Shown here: positions 2,545 to 38,422 of the stretch, in pieces
Position numbering within the stretch: the stretch's first letter is position 1
How the letters are laid out: every line of letters starts with the position of its first letter
Origin: a virus
Direction: 5' to 3' (one strand)
Length of the DNA: 40,325 nt
Virus genome (UHGV): UHGV-0382853
The notes under the pieces: generated by a model
Told to the model about the DNA's origin: nothing
Seen by the model: only the letters and a program-made list of their open reading frames with translations
Databases searched by the model: none
Program-made: the position numbers and the translations under genes

Positions 2545-4347
2545 TTAACCTCTCAAGAAACACGCCACAGCAACATCAAACAGGCTGGAATCCTGTATTG
2601 CCTGCTCACTTTCCCTGTTCGCTTCATCCAGTACTTCACGCGCACTGCGCGATTGTGGATTACCATCATCATCCAGCACGGTGATTATCATGTCAGGTGA
2701 TTCAAGCAGCGAGTCTTCAGCTATACGCAGATCAATATCTCCTGCCGGATCTGCCATCATTTTTTGTTCTGTCTGTTGCAATATCTTACCGGGCTCAAAA
2801 GGAGCTACTTCTTCTGGCGTCCTGACCTCTGCTGTTTTATAGAATGAAACAGCCTGAGCATTAAGTTCACTTTCTGCCTGCTGTCGTCGTGCCAGTTCTG
2901 CTCGAGCTTCAAAAAACTGACCTCCAGGCTCGTGCGGCGCCAACGCGTTACGAGAAAATTCCAGGCGTTCTTGTGCCTGCCGGATTCGTTGGTCAATATC
3001 GCGAAGTCTGGCCTGTTTATCTGATCGAGCACGAGATAAAGCCTTACCGCTACCGGTTGGCTCTTCTGCAAGAATTTGTGCGCGCTGTTCAGTGAGATTT
3101 TCAATAATTCGTTGGCTATTAGCGATTTCAGACTGGTAAACCTTTCTATCGCCACGCGACAAAAGCTGCGCGGCCTGTTCTTCAAGCAACCGATTTTCTA
3201 TAGCGCGCGCCGTTACTCCATCATCTACAGATGACAGAGCCTCATTAACTGCCTGAGACAGCAGACTCTTGCGACCAGGAATTTCACTGAAAGATGCAGA
3301 CTCAACAATGCTGGCAACGTCTACAGGTCTCCCCTGGCTAACATCAGACATGGCTTTTCGCAGAGCCTGAATGTGCGAATTACGCGAAAGCACGTTGATC
3401 GGAACGCCGGGAGCAATATCAATTTCAGCATGATGAGCGGCATTCGCCGCCAGTGCAGCATCAATATCAACTGGTGAAAAATTTGGTGCGCTTGTAGACT
3501 CGCCGCGAGAGTTAATAAATCTGCCGACACCACCAAACGCCACCCCAAGAACAGCATCAATAGCAATTGCCTGTCGATCCAACACATCATACTGGTTAGC
3601 CATTTCGCTATAGCCACCATCACGAAGCGTTTTTGCAGTAAGCCCACGCTGTGCCATACCGAACGCAATATTTGTACCTGCGGCATAGGCAATATCTGGC
3701 GTTGCACGTACTGCTGTTGCTGCGGCGCGTCGCACTGAACTCTCACCCGTCCGCGCAAGCTGAGCCGCCACACCTTCCGCCAGCGCACCACCAGCACGTA
3801 ACCCGAGGCTCATAGGGATCAGTGTTCCGGCACCAGCAGTAATACCCTGCACTAATCCCGCTTCCTGCGCCGTCCTGAAATCAACACCCTGTGCTGTCAG
3901 CCGTTCAAACTCAGAAAAACCCTGTAGCGAAGTTACCGCCGCAGCACCTCCGACCGGACCACCGAGCGTTGTACCGATAACAGCCTGCCCGCCCATATCG
4001 AACAACCCATAAAGAACCTGCCCGGCGGTTCCGGTTGTCGCGGCATCAGGCGTCAGCCGCTTAACCTGCTGCTCTGCTAGTTTTCTCTGCTCGGCAATGT
4101 ATGAAACTGAAGTGTCATTGAGCGAGGTGTTTTCGTTAACAAACTGAGCAATCGGGGATACGATTTTATCCATCCCTGCCCAGAGCAACTGATCTGGCTT
4201 TGCCACCAGCCCGGAGTACAAACCAGACAATGCCGCTCCTACAGCATTGTCGAAAAAACCAACATCGCTGTTAAAGCCAGCTGGATTTGATGCTGCTTCG
4301 TCAAGCTGCTGATTCTGGTTTACTGGATTAAGGCCAAAGTAACTCAT
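2545..4347 (-). CDS. internal virion protein (ejectosome component)
   Basis: 600-aa ORF; its start overlaps the upstream stop (ATGA); Ala/Gly-rich; position in virion module. Confidence 0.5.
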   Translation of the reverse strand: MSYFGLNPVNQNQQLDEAASNPAGFNSDVGFFDNAVGAALSGLYSGLVAKPDQLLWAGMDKIVSPIAQFVNENTSLNDTSVSYIAEQRKLAEQQVKRLTPDAATTGTAGQVLYGLFDMGGQAVIGTTLGGPVGGAAAVTSLQGFSEFERLTAQGVDFRTAQEAGLVQGITAGAGTLIPMSLGLRAGGALAEGVAAQLARTGESSVRRAAATAVRATPDIAYAAGTNIAFGMAQRGLTAKTLRDGGYSEMANQYDVLDRQAIAIDAVLGVAFGGVGRFINSRGESTSAPNFSPVDIDAALAANAAHHAEIDIAPGVPINVLSRNSHIQALRKAMSDVSQGRPVDVASIVESASFSEIPGRKSLLSQAVNEALSSVDDGVTARAIENRLLEEQAAQLLSRGDRKVYQSEIANSQRIIENLTEQRAQILAEEPTGSGKALSRARSDKQARLRDIDQRIRQAQERLEFSRNALAPHEPGGQFFEARAELARRQQAESELNAQAVSFYKTAEVRTPEEVAPFEPGKILQQTEQKMMADPAGDIDLRIAEDSLLESPDMIITVLDDDGNPQSRSAREVLDEANRESEQAIQDSSLFDVAVACFLRG

Positions 4348-6857
4348 TGCGGAATATCTCCGGAGAATCTCTGACGCTTCTGTGTCAGATCAAGAACAAC
4401 GGGAGAACCATCATCTTTTAGCAGATAACCAGTACCAAGTTTCACCAGGTACTGACTATCGCCGTAACTTTGCAAACCATACTGACCATGCGGTGTTTTT
4501 ATCCCTGTGCCAACAACTTGTTCATTCCAAGCCTGATTAACCTGCTTATCGAATTGCTCTGCAGACATTCCCCACGGCAAAAGAACATTCCCCATTCCGT
4601 TATAGTCATGCACGCCACCTGTAGCTACGTTAACAGCCTGTTTCCAGATATCATTGTCAATTTCGCCTGATACCACGCCTTTTTTCGCCATCACACCAGC
4701 GTAATAGTCCTTTGCGATCTCGTATGCCATTGATGCCCCCTGAGCATCACCAGCAAATGCATCCTTCACCATGTCAGAAAACTCAAGGCGGAGATCAGCA
4801 TCTTTAGGCATCGGAATACCTTTCGCGTCATCAGTACCTTTACGAGCCGCCGCGCCAGCAAGAATTGTCTGCGCAGCGGTTTCAGGAGACACGGAAACAT
4901 CCGGATTAAACCAGTTTTTTTCTGCCAAAATACCACCTGGCTTATCCATCAGTATCCCGGCAACGGCAGCAGATGGAGCGTTGGCACTGATCTGCTGTAG
5001 TGCTGACATATACACCTGCCCACCACCAGTGCTCTGCCTGATGGTATCGAGATATGCTGCCTGTTGGGAAACGGGCGCATCACGAAAGAAAACACCGATC
5101 TGATTGGCCTCGTCTTTGGAAAAGAACGTCAGTGGAGTGCCATATGACTTAGCAAGGTCACTGACCTGAGCAGCACGCAAGGCAACGCTCTGTCCAAAGT
5201 TATCCTTATTGCTCATGTCGATAGGCTTTGCCTGTCCGGCGGCAAGAGAGAACTGTACAGGATCAGCCTGTCGCTGCTTTATCACCTGACTTGCAGCCGA
5301 AACAACGTTGTCATAAAGAGCGGCTCGTGCCGCATAACCCTCCCCTGTCTCACCAGTATCCGGGCGTAATTGCTCAACATATGCTGTAATGCTGCTTGTC
5401 GGCATGTTGCGGAAAGAGCCTATATACTGTCCGGCGATTTGCGTATTTCTGAACTCGGTATATCGCAGGTTTCCTTCTCTTACTCCATAAGCTGCAATAA
5501 AATCAGCCTCACCAGGTGGGTTAGGAAATTCAACGCCACGCATATACGCAGCTGTCGCATCGCGAACCTGGCTGTCAATCATCGTTTTATATTCAGCCTG
5601 CTGCTGCCGACGCAGTTGATCCGCCTGTCGCATAAAACTTGCCTGCGCCTCAGGAGATGCCGCATCGAATGCTGCATTACCGGTATAGCGTTTGGTGTTG
5701 GTTGGAATTGTTGATAAACCAAGTGCTGCACTGACACCAGCAGTTAACTGCTGATCACTGTATGGCTGGCTACCGTTCTCATGATGGATAATGGCTGCAC
5801 AAAGCGCCTTCAGGGTATCAGGATTAGATGCATCGAGAGGCTCATCAGCAGAAACGCCAAGTTGTTCGCACACTGCTTTGATATACGACATAGTGTCATT
5901 TTTATCAGTAGGCGGTGCCCAGCGATTAATTATCTCGCTGACGGTATCAATACCCTGCCTCTGATACGACATCAGGTTCCGCCCTAATGCACGAATCCCG
6001 TGTTCAGGTGTTTCGAATTTAGCAAATCGACCATCATCACCGGTCTGGCCTACCCACGGATTAGTTTTGCTGTATTCGAGATTTCCTGGGTTATTGTTGC
6101 GTATGCCACGGGCACGCTCGGAAGAGTCACTATCTGCTACAGCACGGCGAGCTCCAGCAGCAGTATCACTTAACTCGCCATTACTTTGGATGAATGCGGT
6201 CGCATTGTTTGCCGACCACTGGGACAATGCAGCATCAGCAACCTTCTCTTTAAACTCGATTTTCTTGGCCTGGATTTGCTCGTCACTCCAGCCATGTGCA
6301 ATGCCGTAATCCTCAATTTGCTGGAAAGTTTGCTTATTAGCCAATACGTATGCGGCGTTGTCGCCATACAATGCTGCGGCATTTTTACCATTGTTCAGCA
6401 GCGTAGCCTGAAACTGGCCTTCTTCGTAGGCATTTATTTGCCCTATCTCGTGCCGCCCTGCCTGCGTAGTGAACTGAATGCGCTGCTGCTGCGCCTGCTG
6501 CATGAAAGCATTACGAGCCTGTTCATCCGGCAGCGACATAGCCAGTTGTTCGACCTGAGCATCAAACTGCTGCGTATACTCCTGACCTTTTCCAATAGCA
6601 TTTTTCCCTTTCAGGTTAAGCAATCCTGTTTCAGGATTATTCAGCAGATCACTGCTTATCTGACTGAGGTTAAGAGATGCCTCCTGAGCCAGAGCGATAT
6701 TGGCACGCTGTTTTGCCTGACCAAAAACATCAATTGCCTCTGTCCCTGCCCGAACAAAAGCATCACCAATACCTGGCTGAGAAAACGTCTGCAAGCCTGC
6801 TGACTGAACTCCACGGCTCTGAACCTGACGGCCGGATACTGTTGGTACGACTGGCAT
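4344..6857 (-). CDS. internal virion protein (T7 gp15/gp16-like), possible enzymatic domain
   Basis: Start moved to ATG at 6857, which has a GGAGG SD 7 nt upstream (track start 6932 is GTG); contains a conserved-looking motif RGIRNNNPGNLEY...W.G...FETPEHGIRA. Confidence 0.5.
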   Translation of the reverse strand: MPVVPTVSGRQVQSRGVQSAGLQTFSQPGIGDAFVRAGTEAIDVFGQAKQRANIALAQEASLNLSQISSDLLNNPETGLLNLKGKNAIGKGQEYTQQFDAQVEQLAMSLPDEQARNAFMQQAQQQRIQFTTQAGRHEIGQINAYEEGQFQATLLNNGKNAAALYGDNAAYVLANKQTFQQIEDYGIAHGWSDEQIQAKKIEFKEKVADAALSQWSANNATAFIQSNGELSDTAAGARRAVADSDSSERARGIRNNNPGNLEYSKTNPWVGQTGDDGRFAKFETPEHGIRALGRNLMSYQRQGIDTVSEIINRWAPPTDKNDTMSYIKAVCEQLGVSADEPLDASNPDTLKALCAAIIHHENGSQPYSDQQLTAGVSAALGLSTIPTNTKRYTGNAAFDAASPEAQASFMRQADQLRRQQQAEYKTMIDSQVRDATAAYMRGVEFPNPPGEADFIAAYGVREGNLRYTEFRNTQIAGQYIGSFRNMPTSSITAYVEQLRPDTGETGEGYAARAALYDNVVSAASQVIKQRQADPVQFSLAAGQAKPIDMSNKDNFGQSVALRAAQVSDLAKSYGTPLTFFSKDEANQIGVFFRDAPVSQQAAYLDTIRQSTGGGQVYMSALQQISANAPSAAVAGILMDKPGGILAEKNWFNPDVSVSPETAAQTILAGAAARKGTDDAKGIPMPKDADLRLEFSDMVKDAFAGDAQGASMAYEIAKDYYAGVMAKKGVVSGEIDNDIWKQAVNVATGGVHDYNGMGNVLLPWGMSAEQFDKQVNQAWNEQVVGTGIKTPHGQYGLQSYGDSQYLVKLGTGYLLKDDGSPVVLDLTQKRQRFSGDIPQ

Positions 6858-13849: not shown

Positions 13850-14146
13850 TCACTCCTGTTCACTGGCCTCTTTGGCCATCTTCAAATACTGTTCAGGGCA
13901 ATGCGCCATAACGCGCTGAAACAGTTCCAGCGCCAGATTGCGTTGCCCCTCATTAAATGCCATTGCCATAGAGTCCATCGGTGAGATAGCGGAAAACACA
14001 CGGCCTTTCTCCAGCACCGACCAGACAACGCGACGCCCCTGTTCACTGCTCATGACAAAGCGAATGTCATCAATTTCACGCTGTGCCATGTCACATTGCT
14101 TACGGGCGTTTTCTTCTTTCAGTTGATCATCTTCGTAATCTGTCAT
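13850..14146 (-). CDS. hypothetical head-assembly protein
   Basis: 98-aa acidic ORF coupled to the portal stop (ATGA overlap). Confidence 0.4.
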   Translation of the reverse strand: MTDYEDDQLKEENARKQCDMAQREIDDIRFVMSSEQGRRVVWSVLEKGRVFSAISPMDSMAMAFNEGQRNLALELFQRVMAHCPEQYLKMAKEASEQE

Positions 14147-15822
14147 TGTGATTGCCCACCCTGACCACTAACTGCATTCGCCATAGCTGACAAAACACTC
14201 GGATCCGAAGTTTTAGCTTCGCTTAGCGTCTTGGCACCCTGTGCCGCCGCCATCCCCATCGCCATCATTTGTTGCTGCTGTTGTTGCTGTGCCCGTTGCT
14301 GGCGAGCCTGCTCAACCTGTTCCTGCGGAACAATGACGGTTGGAGACACTCCAGACATATCAGCGAATGCATCGATCGCCTGATCAACGTTGAGTTTGTC
14401 GAGAGCTTCTGGTTTCGCTTGCGCAAGTTGACCAATGAAGTTAACCGTGGATGCCAGACTGGACAGGCCGATAGACTTCTGCGCCTGAGCCATGACGGAA
14501 ATGTATTCGACCTTCAGGGGCATGCCTTCCATCGCGTCAGGCGGTGGCGGCAACATGTTTTTACGCACCATCATCGAGAAAGCGCGGTCAATGAGAGGAT
14601 TAAGACATTCGTCGTTCAGACGCTCCAGAACCGGCCCCAACATCAGAAGTTTTTCTTCTTTCATTTCGATCACCGCTTCAACAGGCATCGAGCGGGTATT
14701 GATGTTCTGCAACATCATGAACAGATCGACAAAGTAGGCGCTGTTAATGATTTGACGAGTGTCCTGAATGTCTGCCACCAAATCTGCTGTACTGGGGTTA
14801 ACCAGATAAGCAGGCCTGAAGCCATCCTGACCAGTAATCTGATCGATATACGTGATGTCGCCAGGAAGAAGGGAGGCGCGCTGATTCTTGAGGGAAGTCG
14901 GAGCAACCATCGGAGGATTGGTGGCTTTATCAATCAACTGCGACTTGCGCTTCTGGAGAAGCTGCAATGCCTTAACAGGTCCAAGCGCCAGCATACCCGG
15001 GCATGATGATCCATAAACATCTTCGCCGTTAACTTCCCAGCGCGGAGCCATAATTGGAAACTCATCGAATCCGGACTCACGCAACAACTTGTCGTTATCG
15101 CCACCAACCTCGTAATAAACCGATTTGAATGGCTTGTTCTTGCTATCCAGCTTCGATGTATCGCGGTCAATGTTCGGGTAAACCGAATGCATCACTTCAA
15201 TCCACTTCTCGTAGGTGCCGCTTTCCCACATGCTTTTTACGGATTCGCTGACGTTATTTAGTCCGAATTCCTGAACAAGCTGACGAACAGTCATAGAGAA
15301 CTTGCGAAAACAGGTGTCCACACTGCCACGAGGTGAGTTAGCCAGGTAGTAACTTCCTATCGGGAATGGCATTGTACGAATGATGTCCTCGTCATCCTCC
15401 AGCACCGCCATTGCACCGGTGCTGTATGTGCCGAGGCTTCCGTATAACTGCGGCAGCGACTGATAGAGATTCGACTTATTGAACATATCGTTCATGCGGT
15501 TCTGCACTGCCTCAAGCCACAACTTAACAGGGCCATAATCCATCATTTCAGGATCTGGCGTAGCCAGGCGAAACCACGGACGCGCGGGGCTTGTGATGCC
15601 CGACATCATGCCGCTGGCGAGAGTGCGCGCCGCCATAGTCCCAGTCGAATCAATAATGCGTGTATTGCGTCGATCGTTACGGTTGACCTCAGAAGTCAGA
15701 AAGCGGGAACCACGCGGGTTGATGTAATCACTCAACTCGCGCCAGTGCGGCTCGAACGACTGACGCTCGCTTTCAAGTTGTGCGAACTGTTTGTTCAATC
15801 GCTCTTTAGTTGTTTCCGCCAT
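14143..15822 (-). CDS. portal protein
   Basis: 559 aa, downstream of terminase, Gln/Ala-rich C-terminus; GGAGT SD; size and position typical. Confidence 0.75.
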   Translation of the reverse strand: MAETTKERLNKQFAQLESERQSFEPHWRELSDYINPRGSRFLTSEVNRNDRRNTRIIDSTGTMAARTLASGMMSGITSPARPWFRLATPDPEMMDYGPVKLWLEAVQNRMNDMFNKSNLYQSLPQLYGSLGTYSTGAMAVLEDDEDIIRTMPFPIGSYYLANSPRGSVDTCFRKFSMTVRQLVQEFGLNNVSESVKSMWESGTYEKWIEVMHSVYPNIDRDTSKLDSKNKPFKSVYYEVGGDNDKLLRESGFDEFPIMAPRWEVNGEDVYGSSCPGMLALGPVKALQLLQKRKSQLIDKATNPPMVAPTSLKNQRASLLPGDITYIDQITGQDGFRPAYLVNPSTADLVADIQDTRQIINSAYFVDLFMMLQNINTRSMPVEAVIEMKEEKLLMLGPVLERLNDECLNPLIDRAFSMMVRKNMLPPPPDAMEGMPLKVEYISVMAQAQKSIGLSSLASTVNFIGQLAQAKPEALDKLNVDQAIDAFADMSGVSPTVIVPQEQVEQARQQRAQQQQQQQMMAMGMAAAQGAKTLSEAKTSDPSVLSAMANAVSGQGGQSQ

Positions 15823-15836
15823 TTCAATGACTCCGG

Positions 15837-16043
15837 TTACTGACCAAGCAGCGTTTTACCGCTGGTATTAGCGGTTGATGTGTCGCCCTGAGAACCGGTA
15901 AGCAGCGTAGAACTACGACCAGCAGCAACGCGACGGCGACGAGTTTCTTCGTCGCGGGCATCAACAACGGCGGCATCCTGCTCCTGTGGTGCTGCCTGAA
16001 CTTCTGGTGTTGCAGGCACTGATGGTGAGCTACCCATGCACAT
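15837..16043 (-). CDS. hypothetical small protein
   Basis: 68 aa; the sequence just upstream of its start is nearly identical to that upstream of the portal start (shared tcaatgactcc 11-mer on + strand). Confidence 0.3.
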   Translation of the reverse strand: MCMGSSPSVPATPEVQAAPQEQDAAVVDARDEETRRRRVAAGRSSTLLTGSQGDTSTANTSGKTLLGQ

Positions 16044-16133
16044 ATCAATGACTCCGTACGCAATTAAATTATTACCAATTTAACCACATATGATTTATTT
16101 ATCGTAGATAGTTGACATTTAACGCACAAATTA

Positions 16134-16148
16134 TTACCTTTAAGGTAA
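16134..16148. promoter_or_regulatory. TTACC-N5-GGTAA palindrome (putative operator) upstream of the portal-side transcription unit
   Basis: ttacctttaaggtaa; TTGACA-like hexamer at 16112-16117. Confidence 0.5.
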
Positions 16149-16470
16149 CCAAAGAGTTCATTCCGGTTACTAACCTGACTGGCTTGTCGTTAAATTGAAC
16201 AGGTGGAGTGAGCTTTTATTTTGAGCAGTACGGCGTATGGCACATGCGCCGATAGCGGTCTGGATACGTTTAAGGGGCACCCTCCCTTGCTCGGGCAAAC
16301 GAACCAGGTAGCCGGAATGTGCAAGTCGAGCGGTTTTATTCCGCGCACGGGGATTCACCATCCCGGCGATTCGGTGTGACGCCTCGGAAGAGACGAGGGT
16401 ACAACGATGAGAGCATTTATGGAGCCGCGACAAAGTGTGGCGCCTTAACAGGCTAAGTGCTCTCAGCGTT

Positions 16471-16547
16471 GTGGCATTAGCTCAGTTGGACAGAGCAACC
16501 GCCTTCTAAGCGGTTGGTCGCAGGTTCGAATCCTGCATGCCACGCCA
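16471..16547 (+). tRNA. tRNA-Arg (anticodon TCT, reads AGA)
   Basis: Cloverleaf by eye: acceptor stem gtggcat/atgccac, anticodon loop cTTCTAAg, T-arm ggttcgaatcc, 3' CCA encoded. Confidence 0.85.
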
Positions 16548-16590
16548 GAATCACGCCTAAGGACCGTGATGCCAGAAGTTCCAGGGGCTT

Positions 16591-16632
16591 GGCGGTGATG
16601 GTTTCCCTTGAATGACTATCACCGCCCTTTTT
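16591..16632 (+). terminator. possible terminator hairpin after the tRNA
   Basis: ggcggtgat...atcaccgcc followed by cttttt; large loop, so weak. Confidence 0.3.
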
Positions 16633-16710
16633 ACAGCAGGACGCCATTGCGATGACTTCATGCTGTAAACCAGTACAGCCACGGAAGGCATAACTCATTG
16701 CTTCCAGTTC

Positions 16711-16734
16711 GCCCGGTTCGCCGGGCATTTTTTT
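16711..16734 (+). terminator. rho-independent terminator
   Basis: gcccgg-ttcg-ccgggc followed by attttttt. Confidence 0.6.
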
Positions 16735-16745
16735 AAGGTGAGATT

Positions 16746-17117
16746 ATGAACGACCAGCAAATCGAAAAAGAAATCGTTGAGAAAGGCAAAACTGCTCCGC
16801 GCGTTACGCCAGACCATATCGAAAGCATTATTGCTCAGGAGGCATATTTCACAGCAGAGGATGGTGCCTTTGGCAAAGCCATAAAAGCGAAACATACTGG
16901 CGGAGAGGTAAACTACCAGCCGCACGAATCACTTTCTCTGCTGACGTTCTGCGTCCTGGTGCTGCGCAACGGCTTCACCGTCACCGGAGAGAGCGCCTGT
17001 GCAAGCCCGGAAAACTTTGATGCAGAAATTGGTCGGAAGATTGCCCGGCAGAATGCTGTAAACAAAATCTGGATGCTTGAAGGTTACTTGCTGAAGCAGA
17101 AGTTAAGCGAGCAATAA
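16746..17117 (+). CDS. Gp49-like phage protein (Phage_gp49_66 family), moron
   Basis: 123 aa; N-terminal MNDQQIEKEIVEKGKTAPRVTPDHIE pattern typical of this family; opposite strand to flanking late genes; has its own SD. Confidence 0.55.
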   Translation: MNDQQIEKEIVEKGKTAPRVTPDHIESIIAQEAYFTAEDGAFGKAIKAKHTGGEVNYQPHESLSLLTFCVLVLRNGFTVTGESACASPENFDAEIGRKIARQNAVNKIWMLEGYLLKQKLSEQ

Positions 17118-17137: not shown

Positions 17138-17164
17138 AGCCAGCCTATGAGCTGGCTTTGTTTT
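17138..17164. terminator. bidirectional terminator between Gp49-like gene and terminase
   Basis: agccagc-ctatga-gctggct followed by ttgtttt; A-rich on the other side. Confidence 0.5.
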
Positions 17165-17207
17165 ATCCTCACCAGAGGATATCAATGACATTATCCCCAC
17201 CAGCGGA

Positions 17208-18683
17208 TTAAGCATAGGGATCGTAATCTGTAATGGCCTTGCCTTGCTGGTTCTGCTGCCCGGGAAGTCGCAGGCGCTTTGACACCGGGAAAGCAAACGT
17301 CAGCAGTAGCGCATCGCCTTTACCAGGAGAACGCCCAAGACGCTCTTTGATATCTTCCTTCGGTTCGATAACGATTTTACCGTCCACACGAACTTTGTAC
17401 TCTGCCGCCGACAGGTCGTCTGCAGTTTCCTGGTCATCCAGCATGCCGCCCAGCCTCAGCCATGTCTTACATGAGTTGAACATCTCCCCACGCTTGTTAA
17501 GCATCTGCGGGTCAGTGGACGCACCGCCGAACGGAACAAGTTGCCATGTACGCCCCCAGCCATCACCGATTGACTTCAAACCGGTTCCGTAACCGAAGTC
17601 GATGAACACCGCGTCAGCCTGATACTGGTCTTCAAAGTCAGCGATACGCTTCGCCATTATCAGATCGTCAGTGGTCTTGTTGCCAGTCCACAGCACCTTA
17701 CTGTGCAGCCCCTGCCGCAGGTATATCACAGCGTCATCAACTCCGGAGTATGCCGGGTCAACGCCGATTATCACCGGAGCATGTGCAACCTGCGCAGCGG
17801 TTACCACCCGTTTCATTGCCTCATCAGTAAGACCGGTAGGGATAAACTGCAATTCAGATGCATCAGGGAATATGCCGCGCACACGGATTTTAACGAAGTC
17901 GCTGTCTTCCCCGTAGTCATCAACCCATTTCTGCAACTGCTGTTTGTTAGTGCCTTCCACCGTCCGGCTGTCAATCTGCGCAGTTTTCCAGCGGTGTTTG
18001 TATTTGCGGAAACATTCGCGAAAACGCCCGGTGTTACGTGTAGGGTTTCCGAACGCCACCCAGATAATCTCAGTGTCTTCGTCCGTTAGCGCACCCTCGG
18101 CAACTTCCCACACCAGATCCGCAATGTTCGACGCTTCATCGAATACCACGATGATGCGTTTGCGCTCGTTGTGTAGTCCGGCGAATGCCTCAGTGTTGTG
18201 CTCAGACCAGGGGATTGCGTCAGCTCGCCACCGTTTGTCGTGCCCAGGATCATTGCTGTACATCGCGGTAGCGGTACAGGTAAACCAGTCTTTCGTGATA
18301 GCAAGGTTCGACCACTTGATAATTTCCGGCCAGGTCTTCGTTCGTAGCTGGTTGTCGGTGTTGGCGGTCACCACGACCTTACAATCCTCGCAAGTGGACA
18401 TGCCCCAGTTGATCAGCATTGAGATGAATGCGGATTTACCAATACCGTGACCAGAAGCGCGTGCCAGCATAAGCGGCTGATAGCGCGTCTCTGGATTCTG
18501 CAGGTGATCACGTATCTCTCTGAACGCATCGGCCTGCCACTGACGTGGACCGGTGGCATGTGCCAGTTCAGTACCCTCTTCCCCCCACGGGAACGCATAG
18601 AGGGCATAGCCAAGCGGATCGTGAGTGAACCCTGCAATATCCTCGATTAACTGCTCTTCAGGAGATAACGCTGTATCTGTCAC
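17208..18683 (-). CDS. terminase large subunit
   Basis: 491 aa; Walker A-like ASGHGIGKS; GTG start overlapping the small-subunit stop. Confidence 0.85.
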   Translation of the reverse strand: MTDTALSPEEQLIEDIAGFTHDPLGYALYAFPWGEEGTELAHATGPRQWQADAFREIRDHLQNPETRYQPLMLARASGHGIGKSAFISMLINWGMSTCEDCKVVVTANTDNQLRTKTWPEIIKWSNLAITKDWFTCTATAMYSNDPGHDKRWRADAIPWSEHNTEAFAGLHNERKRIIVVFDEASNIADLVWEVAEGALTDEDTEIIWVAFGNPTRNTGRFRECFRKYKHRWKTAQIDSRTVEGTNKQQLQKWVDDYGEDSDFVKIRVRGIFPDASELQFIPTGLTDEAMKRVVTAAQVAHAPVIIGVDPAYSGVDDAVIYLRQGLHSKVLWTGNKTTDDLIMAKRIADFEDQYQADAVFIDFGYGTGLKSIGDGWGRTWQLVPFGGASTDPQMLNKRGEMFNSCKTWLRLGGMLDDQETADDLSAAEYKVRVDGKIVIEPKEDIKERLGRSPGKGDALLLTFAFPVSKRLRLPGQQNQQGKAITDYDPYA

Positions 18684-19276
18684 TGATTGCCATCCTGACG
18701 TTCTTTCAGTCTCTTCCTGGCTGCCGCTATGCGATCAGCAATTGTCACATTCACATTAACATCCAGGCGTTCTTTGAACGCGTTGACGTCGACGTGCTTA
18801 CCAATCAGTTCGAGGTTCTTCACCTTGTCAGGCCATTTAATTTTTTTGAGGATTGTCTCTATCGAATCCTCGTCCATGTTCATGATGGTAGATGACAGAT
18901 CAAAGCCACTAAGCGTAGTGCGCCAGATTTTCGGCCACTCGCGGATTGGCTTAAGGCTTCCATCGTCGTTGAGGATATCAATCACGTCCATCTGGTCGAT
19001 CTCCACCAGGCGCATGAGAACGTAATCAGCACTGACGCGCATTCGTTTGTTGCGCTCCTCCATCAACTCGGCAATCCGTTTTTGAATGCGTTCATCGCGC
19101 ATCATGACACTGGCTTTAACTGCCGCTGTATTTGGGGAGAATCCTGCGTTAATCGCAGCCTGACTCTGGTTTTCAGGCGTTTTGATGTATGACTGGCAAT
19201 AAGCCTCCTGCATTGCTGTGAGCGGCTTAAATTGCGTTGATTTGCGTTTATAGGTTTTAGGTTCAGCAGGCATCAT
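18680..19276 (-). CDS. terminase small subunit
   Basis: Start moved to ATG 19276 (MMPAEPKTYKRK...) with GGGTGG SD; the track N-terminal extension is discarded; sits directly upstream of the large subunit. Confidence 0.65.
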   Translation of the reverse strand: MMPAEPKTYKRKSTQFKPLTAMQEAYCQSYIKTPENQSQAAINAGFSPNTAAVKASVMMRDERIQKRIAELMEERNKRMRVSADYVLMRLVEIDQMDVIDILNDDGSLKPIREWPKIWRTTLSGFDLSSTIMNMDEDSIETILKKIKWPDKVKNLELIGKHVDVNAFKERLDVNVNVTIADRIAAARKRLKERQDGNQ

Positions 19277-19293
19277 AACCACCCTGGTAATTG

Positions 19294-19308
19294 TTACCGT
19301 CGTGGTAA
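19294..19308. promoter_or_regulatory. TTACC-N5-GGTAA palindrome immediately upstream of terminase small subunit
   Basis: ttaccgtcgtggtaa between the terminator hairpin and the terminase start. Confidence 0.5.
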
Positions 19309-19320
19309 TAGTAACATGCA

Positions 19321-19345
19321 AAATAAAGCCGCCATAGTTGGCGGC
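19321..19345 (-). terminator. rho-independent terminator preceding the late (terminase) operon
   Basis: Hairpin gccgcca-tagt-tggcggc with T-tract on the minus strand (plus-strand aaataaa). Confidence 0.55.
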
Positions 19346-19394
19346 AGTATTCAAAACCCATCAAATTCATCATGCATAATCTACTCGTGACATG

Positions 19395-33679: not shown

Positions 33680-33976
33680 TCAAATAGAGAAATAAACACA
33701 AAAACAAAAAACAACAGGAACAGCAAAATCCAACAGACTTCCCACATCCCACACGCGTGGATCAAAACCTCCCCACCACGGCATGTTGATACGTTTCCCT
33801 TTCCCAAACTTTTCTATCCAGCGATATTCTGCCTGGGTGTGTTCACGCGCAATGAAGAACGTACAACCGGCTATCGCACCGTAAGCCCAGTTTCCGGTAA
33901 AAATACCAACCAGTACCTGAGCCACAAAAGCGCAAAGCGAGTGAAGAAATGGAGTGACATCAATGCTCTTAATCAT
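33680..33976 (-). CDS. small membrane protein co-transcribed with tailspike
   Basis: 98 aa, two hydrophobic segments; ATG overlaps the tailspike stop (ATGA). Confidence 0.45.
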   Translation of the reverse strand: MIKSIDVTPFLHSLCAFVAQVLVGIFTGNWAYGAIAGCTFFIAREHTQAEYRWIEKFGKGKRINMPWWGGFDPRVWDVGSLLDFAVPVVFCFCVYFSI

Positions 33977-36162
33977 GAAACTTCCCCATTGGTTGAAAAT
34001 ATGGCTCCTCCAACGCCAAGTGTATTTCGTGTTGTGCTCAACCTCAGAGGGCTGGAGTCAGAATTAGAATATCCTGTAGCAGAAATAAAAGATCCTCCAC
34101 TAATAGTCAACTGCGGAACATCGGCTATATCTGAATAAGTTCTGTCAGCAACAGTATTATTTATAGCCACATATGATCCAAAAAAACTTCTTATTGTTTG
34201 GTTTTTAACTTTACTTCCTTCAATGGTTATCCTACTACCACAGTCGGCAATAAATCCTGAATCTGCATCCAGCGTTGCATTCATAAAAGAAGCTTCAGAT
34301 CTCTCTACATCAATCCATCTAATATCTTTTGTGGGATTTGCACCAAATACATGACAAATATTAGAGTTAAACCTTACACCATCTTGGAGGTGCATTAATT
34401 TTTTTATATCTGTACCCCATAGCCTTGGAAAATTAACAGATGCTCCTGCATGGCAATCAAATCCCAGCTCAGCCCCTGAGATATCTACAGCCTTTCCTGA
34501 AATAACAGCACCAGTGTCTGCATTAACGGCTGTTCCACAATTGCGCATATCATTACCAGCAACATCAACGCAACCCGCACCATCAATACGCACACCAAGT
34601 GCACATCCATAAAAACCTTTTTCAATATTTGGTTCAAGGACTTTACCACTTGTTTCTGCATCACTTTCTTCAACGTCATGTCGTCTTGCATCAACATATG
34701 CTGTATGAATGCAGGTTAATCCACGATATGAGCAATGTATAGTTTTATGGTCGCGTATATTAACATTTGAACCATCTCTTACATTCCATCCTATATAACA
34801 ATAGCTTGCACTTGACCCCTGAAAATCTGCTTTAACATTATAAATACAATTAACTGACGCAACCGTACTCTCTGTGCACCGTTCAAACTTGCTTACAGGC
34901 ATTGATGCCTTGACATTATTTACCAGTTGCAGGGAAGAGTATCTGCTATAAGAAAAATCACATACGTAATACCCTTCTGGCATATATGCAGCAACACTTT
35001 CCTCATCAGGAGCACATCCGGTATGATATGCACTAATTTTTGCACCAAAACTACCATGAATTCCAACGTAGAACTTTCGAGCACCTGAATACGGATAGAA
35101 ATTAAGTTCAGCTTTTTGAGTTACAATAAATGCACAAACATCGCTATCATCTCTATTTTCTTCGATCTGAATAGCAAATACAGGACTTTTTGCTGCATCG
35201 CAAATGTAAAATAAATACTTGTATTCGTAATACGTTCTAACGATTTTAGTAAACAAACGAGTGTCAGAGAAAACCACTGAGTCTTCTGATGTTATTTTAA
35301 TCCAAGACAAATCAACACCTGAACTGAATTCAATTTGATAGTTGATAATATGCCCGGTCTTAATTCTTATTTCGCAGAAAGCATTACCACCATCCCACAT
35401 AGGTCTCATTGACTGGGCTGCAATGATTGCATCTTTGAGTGTAGGGTAATCACCCCATTCGCCAACAGTAATAACAAAAGTATAATATGAGTTAAAAACA
35501 GCGGCATTTTTGCCTTTGGATATCAACTCCTTAATCATAAAAATATTATCTTCGTAATCACAAGGAGAAATTATATCCCTCATTTTGCTTTGAAATGTTC
35601 GTTGTCTTGCCCCGCTTCCTGACGGTATAAACCAACCAAAACCACCAACAACCCCGGCGATTGCAGCATCGACATAATTACGCATTGAGCGATTATTTAC
35701 AGCATCCTGCTCAAGTGATGGATCTGCAAGGTTAGAAATTCTGTTTTGCTTTGCATCGTAATATTTTGCAAGCAGAGAGGGCTTCATCAATGCACGTCTG
35801 AACCACCCAAAACATTGCTGGATCAGCATCGTCAGGTAGTCAAAGGCATCTTCATGCACTTCGGGGAAAAATTTTCCCTGATTGCGAAGGTCTGTCTCCT
35901 GCACTACATCAAGCACACGATCTATCGTAATTCGCCATCCAGTAGCAAGCGGAGACGGAAGAACCACAGAACCGCCACTATAAGTGCCCGCCCCAGTTAC
36001 CGTATAACCGGTATCCAGGACCAATTCTGTTACGTTCCCGTTCAGGTCAGACACCTGAACAACCAGGTCTGATTTTCTGAAAATTCGAAAAGTATACGGA
36101 AACGATGTCGTAACGCCGTTACCGGTGTATTCGTTGTGGTCAACTTCGGTTGAGACCGTCAT
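33973..36162 (-). CDS. tailspike / tail fibre with conserved N-terminal anchor and probable beta-helix depolymerase C-terminal domain
   Basis: 729 aa; N-terminus ...YTGNGVTTSFPYTF...LDTGYTV...ITIDRVL...ETDLRNQG resembles podoviral tail-fibre N-terminal domain; the C-terminal two thirds are AT-rich with Cys/Asn/Ser/Gly-rich repeats. Confidence 0.65.
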   Translation of the reverse strand: MTVSTEVDHNEYTGNGVTTSFPYTFRIFRKSDLVVQVSDLNGNVTELVLDTGYTVTGAGTYSGGSVVLPSPLATGWRITIDRVLDVVQETDLRNQGKFFPEVHEDAFDYLTMLIQQCFGWFRRALMKPSLLAKYYDAKQNRISNLADPSLEQDAVNNRSMRNYVDAAIAGVVGGFGWFIPSGSGARQRTFQSKMRDIISPCDYEDNIFMIKELISKGKNAAVFNSYYTFVITVGEWGDYPTLKDAIIAAQSMRPMWDGGNAFCEIRIKTGHIINYQIEFSSGVDLSWIKITSEDSVVFSDTRLFTKIVRTYYEYKYLFYICDAAKSPVFAIQIEENRDDSDVCAFIVTQKAELNFYPYSGARKFYVGIHGSFGAKISAYHTGCAPDEESVAAYMPEGYYVCDFSYSRYSSLQLVNNVKASMPVSKFERCTESTVASVNCIYNVKADFQGSSASYCYIGWNVRDGSNVNIRDHKTIHCSYRGLTCIHTAYVDARRHDVEESDAETSGKVLEPNIEKGFYGCALGVRIDGAGCVDVAGNDMRNCGTAVNADTGAVISGKAVDISGAELGFDCHAGASVNFPRLWGTDIKKLMHLQDGVRFNSNICHVFGANPTKDIRWIDVERSEASFMNATLDADSGFIADCGSRITIEGSKVKNQTIRSFFGSYVAINNTVADRTYSDIADVPQLTISGGSFISATGYSNSDSSPLRLSTTRNTLGVGGAIFSTNGEVS

Positions 36163-37494: not shown

Positions 37495-37585
37495 ATTTAC
37501 ATTGCACTCCTCTTGTGCCATAGTAATCGGGCACTGGCAAAATCCAGTGCCGGGATTGGTCTCCCGGATTACTAAGTGGCGCATA

Positions 37586-37607
37586 CCACGCCAGACGTGG
37601 TTTTTTT
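37586..37607 (+). terminator. rho-independent terminator inside the antirepressor leader
   Basis: ccacg-ccaga-cgtgg followed by ttttttt. Confidence 0.55.
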
Positions 37608-37765
37608 ATGCGTATAGCACAGTCATGCCAGAATTATGGTGGGCTGAATGGGGGTCCGAAAGGACGCCGGTACCACTTAGGCCGGTAAGACCAACTCCGT
37701 TCAGTTCACCACCATCTGATTGGTCTCAGCGGTGGTGATGTAATTCGCTAAGTGGAGACGCCATC

Positions 37766-38422
37766 ATGAACGCTCAACTCATCCCCGTATTCAACGGCAC
37801 TATATCTAACGAAACAGCCCTACTTTGTAATGCCCGCGATCTGCACACTTTTTTAGGTGTTAAAAAGGTGTTTGCAGCATGGATTACAAATCGCATATCA
37901 GAATACGAATTCATTGAAAATCAAGACTATATTTTGCTTTCCAATTTGGGAAAGCAAACATCTGGTAGAGGCGGCCACAACCGCAAAGAGTACCACCTCA
38001 CCCTTGATACAGCCAAAGAGCTGGCGATGGTCGAGCGTAACGAAAAAGGTCGCCAGGTGCGACGCTACTTCATTGAATGCGAGAAACGTTTAAGACAACA
38101 AGAAACAAAAGTGGAGAAGGTCTTGTCAGGCTTCATGCCCGCCATTATGGAGGCGATCAAGCTGGAAGACAAAAAAGAATACAGCGCCCCACTGAAGCCC
38201 GGCTACCGCAGCCTGATTCATTCTCCGTCTGGTGTTCTCGGACTGACGGAGAACTCACTGCTGATGAATCTGCTGAACCAGTTACAGGAAGACGGGCACG
38301 ACGTATCGGGCGCGGCGGCGGAGCTGACCACCATGTTCTGCTACATCGTCGGTGTGAGCAAATGCCTGCGTGATATCCAGACGCACGCGGAGTACATCAA
38401 CGACAAGGCAGGGTTCTTCTGA
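37766..38422 (+). CDS. antirepressor (AntA/AntB N-terminal domain)
   Basis: 218 aa; N-terminal IPVFNGT...LCNARDLHTFLGVKKVFAAWITNRISEYEFIENQDYIL typical of AntA domain; C-terminal domain paralogous to the 36358 product. Confidence 0.7.
   Translation: MNAQLIPVFNGTISNETALLCNARDLHTFLGVKKVFAAWITNRISEYEFIENQDYILLSNLGKQTSGRGGHNRKEYHLTLDTAKELAMVERNEKGRQVRRYFIECEKRLRQQETKVEKVLSGFMPAIMEAIKLEDKKEYSAPLKPGYRSLIHSPSGVLGLTENSLLMNLLNQLQEDGHDVSGAAAELTTMFCYIVGVSKCLRDIQTHAEYINDKAGFF

Follow-up and report, generated by a model that had tools for sequence, protein, structure and literature searches.

A covarying structured RNA shared by unrelated phages, possibly an antiterminator that works like HK022 put

For some 30 years the put RNA of phage HK022 has had, to our knowledge, almost no company among RNAs able to reprogram bacterial RNA polymerase on their own. 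It acts by binding the polymerase at the β′ zinc-binding domain, suppressing pausing and termination without protein factors. In the Bacillales, EAR (eps-associated RNA), a pseudoknotted, multi-helix leader of ~120 nucleotides (nt), promotes read-through of distant terminators in the eps operon. put is ~70 nt long, consists of two stem-loops and requires no phage partner (PMC9378689); for LLS, put-type antitermination has been suggested, with the RNA not identified (PMC12315714). Here we analyze a 40,325-nucleotide virus genome, UHGV-0382853 (the window, meaning this whole stretch at its full length), and describe a structured non-coding element on its plus strand directly ahead of a tRNA-Arg gene. 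We find that the element is a widespread structured RNA family, undescribed as far as we could find, that recurs in three unrelated phage backbones with a covarying structure, a consistent position and orientation, and an enrichment of strong terminators downstream. Structurally it probably forms a new class within a known kind of device, and we give a probability of roughly 0.45 to the reading that it is a cis-acting processive antiterminator working like HK022 put.

The initial annotation had taken 16150–16470 to be non-coding and structured, and both claims are borne out. The reading frame that is most often open is intact in just 25 of 57 relatives, length differences among relatives are not multiples of three, and the two longest open reading frames (ORFs) of the stretch have no Pfam match; a protein-coding reading was rejected on the absence of a Pfam match together with the lack of any frame kept among relatives. 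Folding of 16150–16470 against shuffled sequences gives z = −2.99 for the plus strand and z = −1.68 for the minus strand. A covariance-model search against Rfam 15, the check suggested by the initial annotation, returned nothing credible in 16150–16470 even with E values up to 10, the adjoining tRNA alone matching at the gathering score; the conserved, covarying structure emerged from comparative analysis instead. The parts of the element are as follows.

16230–16472, plus strand: structured non-coding element, with the core at 16230–16398 followed by P6 at 16399–16472
16231–16236 / 16246–16251, plus strand: helix P1
16259–16263 / 16304–16308, plus strand: helix P2, with a variable extension
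16307–16325, plus strand: near-invariant segment GGTAGCCGGAATGTGCAAG
16326–16349, plus strand: variable P3 region
16350–16353 / 16361–16364, plus strand: helix P4
16356–16359 with 16373–16376, plus strand: pseudoknot, P4 loop CACC pairing with GGTG
16382–16386 / 16394–16398, plus strand: helix P5, with the conserved loop GAAGAGA
~16400–16416 / ~16456–16472, plus strand: helix P6, 5′ strand ACAACGATGAGAGCA and 3′ strand TGCTCTCAGCGTTGT, with a variable apical insert

We aligned 57 distinct copies (alignment A3, to which all column numbers refer) and find that the structure composed of P1, P2, P4, the pseudoknot and P5 leaves 97.5% of cells paired; both partners have changed at 12 pairs, amounting to 114 cells. 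Column shuffling never equals these values in 500 trials, and in a control in which the partners are slid by 1–3 columns pairing falls to 26–49%. Compensatory exchange is found in every helix of this set: GC 30 and AU 26 at columns 12:24 (P1), CG 44 and UA 13 at 38:96 (P2), AU 39, UG 11 and CG 6 at 146:154 (P4), CG 51 and AU 6 at 149:169 (pseudoknot), and CG 39 and GC 16 at 179:190 (P5). Among the nested inverted repeats pointed out by the initial annotation, cctcg...cgagg is helix P5 and covaries, but cggaat...attccg, present in the window, lacks conservation as a helix, because one of its arms falls within the near-invariant segment and relatives do not have the other. The window copy scores 151.9 bits under the element's covariance model (R1), and both CCGGAAUGUGCAAG and the P5 loop GAAGAGA are near-invariant even in searches that do not fix them. 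That the element is a real conserved RNA is, in our judgment, nearly certain, and comparison of the sequences indicates that it is an RNA rather than a gene or a DNA site.

Helix P6 extends this core in most copies. Of 90 distinct contexts, 66 let the 20 nt following P5 pair with a strand 31–120 nt downstream at −15 kcal/mol or better, and the two strands vary in a compensatory manner (GAGAGCA/UGCUCUC, AAGAGCA/UGCUCUU, GAGAGCGCAC/GUGCGCUC); P6 is missing in phage P1 itself. The size of the element is ~170–240 nt, a core of ~170 nt usually joined by a long P6. Two further pairings proposed by RNAalifold were rejected. A pseudoknot of the P1 loop, GCACAU:AUGUGC, is unsupported, as three metagenomic variants (AUGCGC) break it without compensation; both strands are otherwise invariant, so that covariation is uninformative. 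A long-range pairing of columns 9–11 with 115–117 is contradicted by compensatory changes that favor the local P1 hairpin. An ops/RfaH-like site was likewise dropped: GGTAGC within an invariant 19-mer of the element resembles the ops sequence, and variants turn this region to UAA, CAA, ACAA, UGG or AAG while CCGGAAUGUGCAAG stays.

The window phage is, to judge from its sequence, a phiV10-like (epsilon15-like) temperate Uetakevirus, with 98–99% BLAST identity over 16040–16760 to phiV10, TL-2011b, ZX5 and O157 typing phages. A BLAST query with 16150–16470 against phage genomes gave 86 records, and 16230–16470 shares 80–83% identity with unannotated DNA of phages unrelated to Uetakeviruses. These carriers comprise lambdoid phages (cdtI, mEp460, 2H10, Ayreon, Stx2c- and Stx2k-converting phages and ECOR-derived phages), P1-type phages (P1, P7, D6, SJ46 and RCS47) and more distant phages of Klebsiella, Enterobacter and Salmonella, along with one phage whose recorded host is Stenotrophomonas. 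Among 5426 complete E. coli genomes, 1840 (34%) carry the element; the copies lie at 1920 places on chromosomes and 554 on plasmids, and none is annotated. Pattern searches with the 19-mer and two further conserved blocks retrieved 24 genome loci (Kosakonia, Citrobacter, Klebsiella, Kluyvera, Erwinia and Buttiauxella among them), over 130 loci in viral sequences and 120 in metagenomes. This distribution reads as that of a mobile RNA module, gained and lost across phage backbones. A full-scoring copy (174 bits) on a contig of a Bacillota metagenome-assembled genome (L027) is typical of enterobacterial prophages, and the contig is probably mis-binned; the 19-mer in an Oscillospiraceae sequence (L015) is a chance match in unrelated sequence.

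In RefSeq, INPHARED and PLSDB-derived records the element is unannotated, being left blank or covered by "hypothetical proteins". Coding sequences of the latter kind lie over or against it in mEp460 (L155 3943–4311, where mEp460_037 is an antisense-strand example) and in Tyrion (L004 1711–1872); no frame is conserved across the family and these calls are therefore probably mis-annotations. The 19-mer is absent from the searchable literature text, though King 2011 (PMC3187212) may hold an earlier mention.

An element copy is single in 98 of 99 loci, the exception being a tandem pair on one strand. In this locus (L047) the copies, at 3989–4159 and 4796–4964 on the minus strand and ~640 nt apart, share a single cI-like gene upstream; after each comes an ORF in the opposite orientation (166 and 163 amino acids, the latter with a product that looks hydrophobic and membrane-like), ahead of early genes of the ParB-HTH type.

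Analysis of the neighbors of ~148 oriented loci resolves three contexts. At 72 loci a gene for a CI/LexA-type repressor lies immediately 5′ on the same strand and the element stands behind a pL-like promoter. Phage cdtI shows the order most clearly: the cI stop, an intrinsic terminator, the promoter TTGACA-17-ATAATG ~45 nt 5′ of the element, the element, a strong terminator and the first early-left gene, with an operator, ATGTACCCTTGAGATACAT, that overlaps the promoter and matches both OR operators. From this order it follows that the element is the leader of the pL transcript and not the tail of the cI transcript. A second group of ~37 loci is Uetakevirus-like, with a conserved promoter overlapping the palindrome TTACCTTTAAGGTAA; in some metagenomic variants helix P1 begins ~8 nt past this palindrome. 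At least 13 loci are P1-like, with the element inside the C1-controlled ban operon, where tRNA-Ile(CAT) ends 15 nt upstream of it and ban, or a Tad2-like gene, begins 100 nt downstream. The promoters ahead of the element are repressor-controlled early promoters in all three groups, and on each of these unrelated backbones the element always points the same way as the genes behind it.

In five P1-like loci (L063, L086, L092, L123 and L132) ban is replaced right after the element by a gene for a 191-amino-acid Tad2-like (Thoeris anti-defence 2) protein (PF11195, E = 1e-9), at +360 to +936 from the 19-mer. The cdtI locus also carries, near the element (L002 277–465, minus strand), a pair formed by isrK and C4 antisense RNA. 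The same pair is found in the window at 37531–37716 on the plus strand, isrK (Rfam, 67.7 bits) followed directly by C4 (61.2 bits), and constitutes an immI-like antisense-RNA immunity module of the P1/P7 type.

The second context is that of the window, where the surrounding features are the following.

14143–15822, minus strand: portal gene (PF12236)
15837–16043, minus strand: small ORF
16112–16148, plus strand: promoter-like site, −35 TTGACA at 16112–16117, 17-nt spacer, −10 TACCTT at 16135–16140
16134–16148: palindrome TTACCTTTAAGGTAA, putative repressor operator, overlapping the promoter-like site
16150–16229, plus strand: lineage-specific 5′ leader, in the minimum-free-energy fold a long-range stem around a hairpin, with a U-rich run at the end
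16471–16547, plus strand: tRNA-Arg(UCU) with an encoded CCA end (ARAGORN; Rfam RF00005, 73.3 bits)
16591–16632, plus strand: intrinsic terminator T1, GGCGGTGAT...ATCACCGCC then CTTTTT, ~−21 kcal/mol in the terminator scan
16711–16734, plus strand: intrinsic terminator T2, GCCCGGTTCGCCGGGC then ATTTTTTT, 12 nt 5′ of the Gp49-like ORF
16746–17117, plus strand: ORF of the Gp49/Sf6 gene 66 family, 123 amino acids (Pfam PF13876, Phage_gp49_66, E = 2e-35)
17138–17166, plus strand: terminator T3, a hairpin separating the Gp49-like ORF from the TerL gene, which is convergent with it
17208–18683, minus strand: TerL gene, named via the homologous epsilon15 gene
18680–19354, minus strand: TerS gene (PF03592)

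The location of TerL, TerS and portal, all on the minus strand, confirms the plus-strand insert between terminase and portal that the initial annotation described, along with its tRNA-Arg(TCT), its Gp49-like gene and the two terminator-like hairpins between them, here T1 and T2. The unit occupies the gap between TerL and the small ORF on the portal side, and the Gp49-like ORF is its sole protein gene. Transcription of the unit is expected to start near 16147–16150. The promoter, whose −10 matches at just 3 of 6 positions, was missed by a simple promoter scan; alignment A4 shows it kept in epsilon15, in Tyrion and at three further loci of the Uetakevirus type. In the epsilon15 record, the palindrome homologous to TTACCTTTAAGGTAA is marked as a repressor site and an IHF site, and the homologue of T2 as a rho-independent terminator. 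The leader 16150–16229 is kept only in Uetakevirus-type copies, being missing from the lambdoid and P1 copies, and lies outside the shared core. The divergent intergenic region 16060–16148 holds two copies of ATTATTACC in addition to TTACCTTTAAGGTAA, all conserved across Uetakevirus-like phages and probably operators common to the plus-strand promoter and a portal-side promoter. T3, with an A-rich 5′ flank and a T-rich 3′ flank, may be bidirectional; read-through of it would yield RNA antisense to terminase.

The initial annotation left open whether this sequence is the leader of the tRNA or an independent non-coding RNA, and the second description is much the closer. As a mere 5′ leader of the tRNA-Arg precursor the element would have no function of its own; it does abut the tRNA, whose first two bases fall within P6. 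However, most copies have no tRNA within 3 kilobases, the structure covaries independently of any tRNA, and an adjoining tRNA, found in only ~40% of the ~148 loci, differs in side and identity, being tRNA-Arg and downstream in Uetakeviruses, tRNA-Ile(CAT) and upstream in P1-like phages. A tRNA at this minority of loci, on opposite sides in the two groups, argues that the element is not a tRNA leader, an explanation we regard as scarcely credible. The junction itself is tight: the 3′ strand of P6 (CGTTGT, window 16467–16474) ends in the first two bases of tRNA-Arg, with which overlap RNase P would cut at the base of P6, and similarity to the lambdoid copies stops exactly at GTGG, the first four tRNA bases.

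AGA, the codon read by this tRNA, makes up 8.3 per 1000 codons and 13.5% of Arg codons in the window ORFs, in line with the enrichment that the initial annotation had anticipated. The E. coli average is ~2 per 1000, a figure relative to which the window is ~4-fold higher. AGA counts are highest in tail, tailspike and early genes, with 15 AGA among 37 Arg codons in the ORF at 33973–36162. These counts are consistent with tRNA-Arg(UCU) supplying a reader of rare codons.

Terminators are a recurrent feature downstream of the element. We define a strong terminator as one on the sense strand of −14 kcal/mol or better within +90 to +700 of the 19-mer, and find one in 48 of 76 non-redundant loci, vs 0–6 of 76 in three control regions. 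At 80 of 114 loci the first co-oriented ORF is separated from the element by a terminator-like site, and two to four terminators in series are common. What lies behind them varies by lineage (DUF2303/YfdQ with a 5′-nucleotidase, ParB-HTH, Tad2-like, ban or Gp49_66), and this variable cargo points to a generic expression element. The initial annotation had not anticipated such a tie to early-operon promoters and terminators. The first terminator is found at a variable distance, 166–694 nt away, a spread that fits action at a distance and misfits the expression platform of a riboswitch.

This spacing bears on the possibility that the element is a cis-acting leader of another kind, one that works by attenuation on sensing a ligand, protein or temperature, that protects the 5′ end from RNases, or that serves as a processing site. 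Its leader position, its complex conserved fold, the terminators downstream and near-invariant single-stranded segments of the kind found in riboswitch aptamers would all suit such a leader, and the annotators of epsilon15 predicted an RNase III site in the adjacent leader. Yet the first terminator is far and variably placed, no alternative pairing between element and terminator is seen, the downstream genes have no common function that would suggest a ligand, and no Rfam riboswitch matches; a classical riboswitch was rejected on the long and variable distance to the terminators, and we consider the wider class of sensing or protective leaders improbable.

Comparison with put sharpens the preferred reading, that of an antiterminator. 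As with put, the element is the leader of a repressor-controlled lambdoid early operon, directly after pL and before the terminators; the same early-operon leader position is found in cdtI, in P1 and in the window, where T1 and T2 are the terminators to be passed. The element and put also share an order of short motifs, which opens with the hairpin ACGGCG...CAUGCGUCG, identical in five base pairs, and continues with GGCG, a hairpin with a GGAAGAG or GGAUGA loop, and CAA(U/C). Independence from a phage partner, a property of put, is suggested for the element by its three unrelated backbones: a common phage partner for these carriers seems unlikely, and the partners would then probably be host components.

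The element differs from put in being 2–3 times larger (~170–240 nt), with at least six helices and a pseudoknot, and the conserved put sequence, GAACGGCGCG...GUCGG...GGCGGG..AGGAUGA..GGCAAU, is not found in it. Our put set consisted of HK022 putL and putR, the annotated putL-like RNA of HK639, which differs in sequence from the element, and five further relatives. A put model (R2) scores 94 bits for HK022 putL, 53 for putR and 95 for HK639, and merely 5.5 and 3.9 in the window, while the element model R1, run with filters off, finds no put RNA in HK022 or HK639. Homology to put was rejected, both model directions being negative and only short motif likenesses being left; Rfam 15 has no put family and leaves HK022 put unmatched. 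HK022 carries two copies (putL and putR) whereas the element normally occurs once per phage, and for HK639, too, putL is the only copy annotated. With 86 phage records vs 21 for put, and a presence in 34% of complete E. coli genomes, the element is far more widespread, and it occurs outside lambdoids, in P1 and Uetakeviruses. We thus file the element as one that works like put and is not a member of the put family. The HK639 record (L153) annotates, besides the putL-like RNA, an "M3-like RNA" at 37910–37969 in the rightward early operon.

EAR offers a parallel in form, as a pseudoknotted, multi-helix leader RNA that promotes read-through of distant terminators; it belongs to another phylum, is chromosomal and not phage-borne, and gives no Rfam match to the element. 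The nut site of lambda is likewise just downstream of pL, and a nut-like site that recruits an unrecognized phage or host protein, as boxB recruits N or boxA recruits NusB/E, has some likeness to the element in its favor. P5 has a 5-base-pair stem and a loop that begins GAAGA, as does lambda nutL boxB (GCCCU-GAAGA-AGGGC), and certain lineages have, in the 3′ strand of P6, CAGUGCUCUUU, which resembles rrn boxA. The P5 loop has 7 nt, however, and resembles boxB in its first five bases only. Within P6 the boxA-like words take part in pairing, and other members have UGCGCUC, AGUCAUC or CGCCGUUU in their place, so that a boxA in this strand, base-paired and not conserved across the family, was rejected. 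The element, which has no conserved single-stranded boxA, is far bigger than nut and has tertiary pairing, and a protein shared by its unrelated carrier groups seems unlikely. No N-like protein occurs among the first downstream genes, carrier genomes not having been screened for N. We regard a nut-like site as very doubtful.

Under the antiterminator reading, the element would be transcribed as the leader of a repressor-controlled early operon, and the nascent RNA would fold and remain with the elongating host RNA polymerase, making it resistant to downstream intrinsic terminators. In the window, transcripts from 16112–16148 would carry the element, deliver the tRNA, pass T1 and T2 and express the Gp49-like gene, and transcripts entering the unit from elsewhere would stop at the terminators; in lambdoids, the strong terminator between pL and the early-left genes would be passed. 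No phage protein would be needed, and the job would be the same as that of put in HK022. The family, its structure, its position and orientation and the terminators downstream are observed; action in cis on RNA polymerase and the read-through are what we infer from them. The shared anatomy of a repressed early promoter, a large RNA, terminators and variable cargo, on unrelated backbones, makes an antiterminator the best reading. Also in its favor, the lambdoid carriers have no N annotated, nor was one detected among the first downstream genes, and phages that share this type of early-left operon, namely SfII, SfV and SfIV (PMC3851460) and LLS (PMC12315714), have been reported to be without N.

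Several observations weigh against this. Epsilon15 (L003 1544–1641) retains only a remnant, P1 and half of P2 (42.5 bits), and lacks the tRNA, yet keeps T2 and the Gp49-like ORF, and is thus a natural deletion variant. SfV (L175 ~4760–5660, minus strand) shares with cdtI the same pL promoter/operator and the same downstream terminator, but unrelated sequence, orf33 included, stands in place of the core, and of the P6 3′ strand just the final part (AGCGTTGTGG) is left. Together these variants indicate that the element is dispensable or that substitutes exist. An expected anticorrelation with N did not hold: SfV and ST64B, as expected carriers, are without the element. Lambda lacks it as well. 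Phages usually carry a single copy, the rightward early operon showing none, and in P1 no clear terminator is seen between the element and ban, in an operon that is non-essential by CRISPR interference (PMC10695390). A fourth control region, upstream, has strong terminators in 26 of 76 loci. The covariance models detect no homology to put, and promoter, element (with or without tRNA) and strong terminator could equally define a discrete gene for a stable RNA.

This last arrangement is the basis for a stand-alone, stable non-coding RNA that acts in trans, made from its own early promoter and ended by the first strong terminator. Such an RNA would be freed from a co-transcribed tRNA by RNase P or RNase E and would bind or mimic a host component, be it RNA polymerase, the ribosome or a tRNA enzyme, or a defense nuclease. 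The strong terminator after most loci would complete a unit of promoter, RNA and terminator; tRNA neighbors in two lineages, extreme conservation across unrelated phages, cassette-like gain and loss as in epsilon15 and SfV, the tandem duplicate at one locus and a complex pseudoknotted fold larger than put all fit. On the other hand, the lambdoid promoter is pL, and if transcription stopped there, no promoter would be visible for the early-left operon; the P1 copy lies 100 nt upstream of ban in a long operon with no terminator of its own, and co-orientation with downstream genes is constant. We judge a trans-acting RNA gene, the main rival, to be somewhat unlikely. Its broader form is that the element founds a new class of mobile, structured phage RNA that is no antiterminator, is made early, often alongside phage tRNAs, and acts in trans on a conserved host machine or defense system; it might serve as a decoy for a tRNA-directed nuclease, modulate RNA polymerase or the ribosome, or be a ribozyme. 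This broader form we hold to be unlikely.

Whatever its function, the element is an unannotated and strongly covarying RNA family that records leave blank or place under spurious "hypothetical proteins". If it does the same job as put with a larger and different fold, RNA-only antitermination would be common, given that one complete E. coli genome in three carries the element, as do P1-type phage-plasmids, Stx- and cdt-converting prophages and Uetakeviruses. Such a role would address how the early-left operon is expressed in lambdoids related to SfV and ST64B, reported to be without N, and would provide a second structural solution to set beside the cryo-EM structure of put with RNA polymerase.

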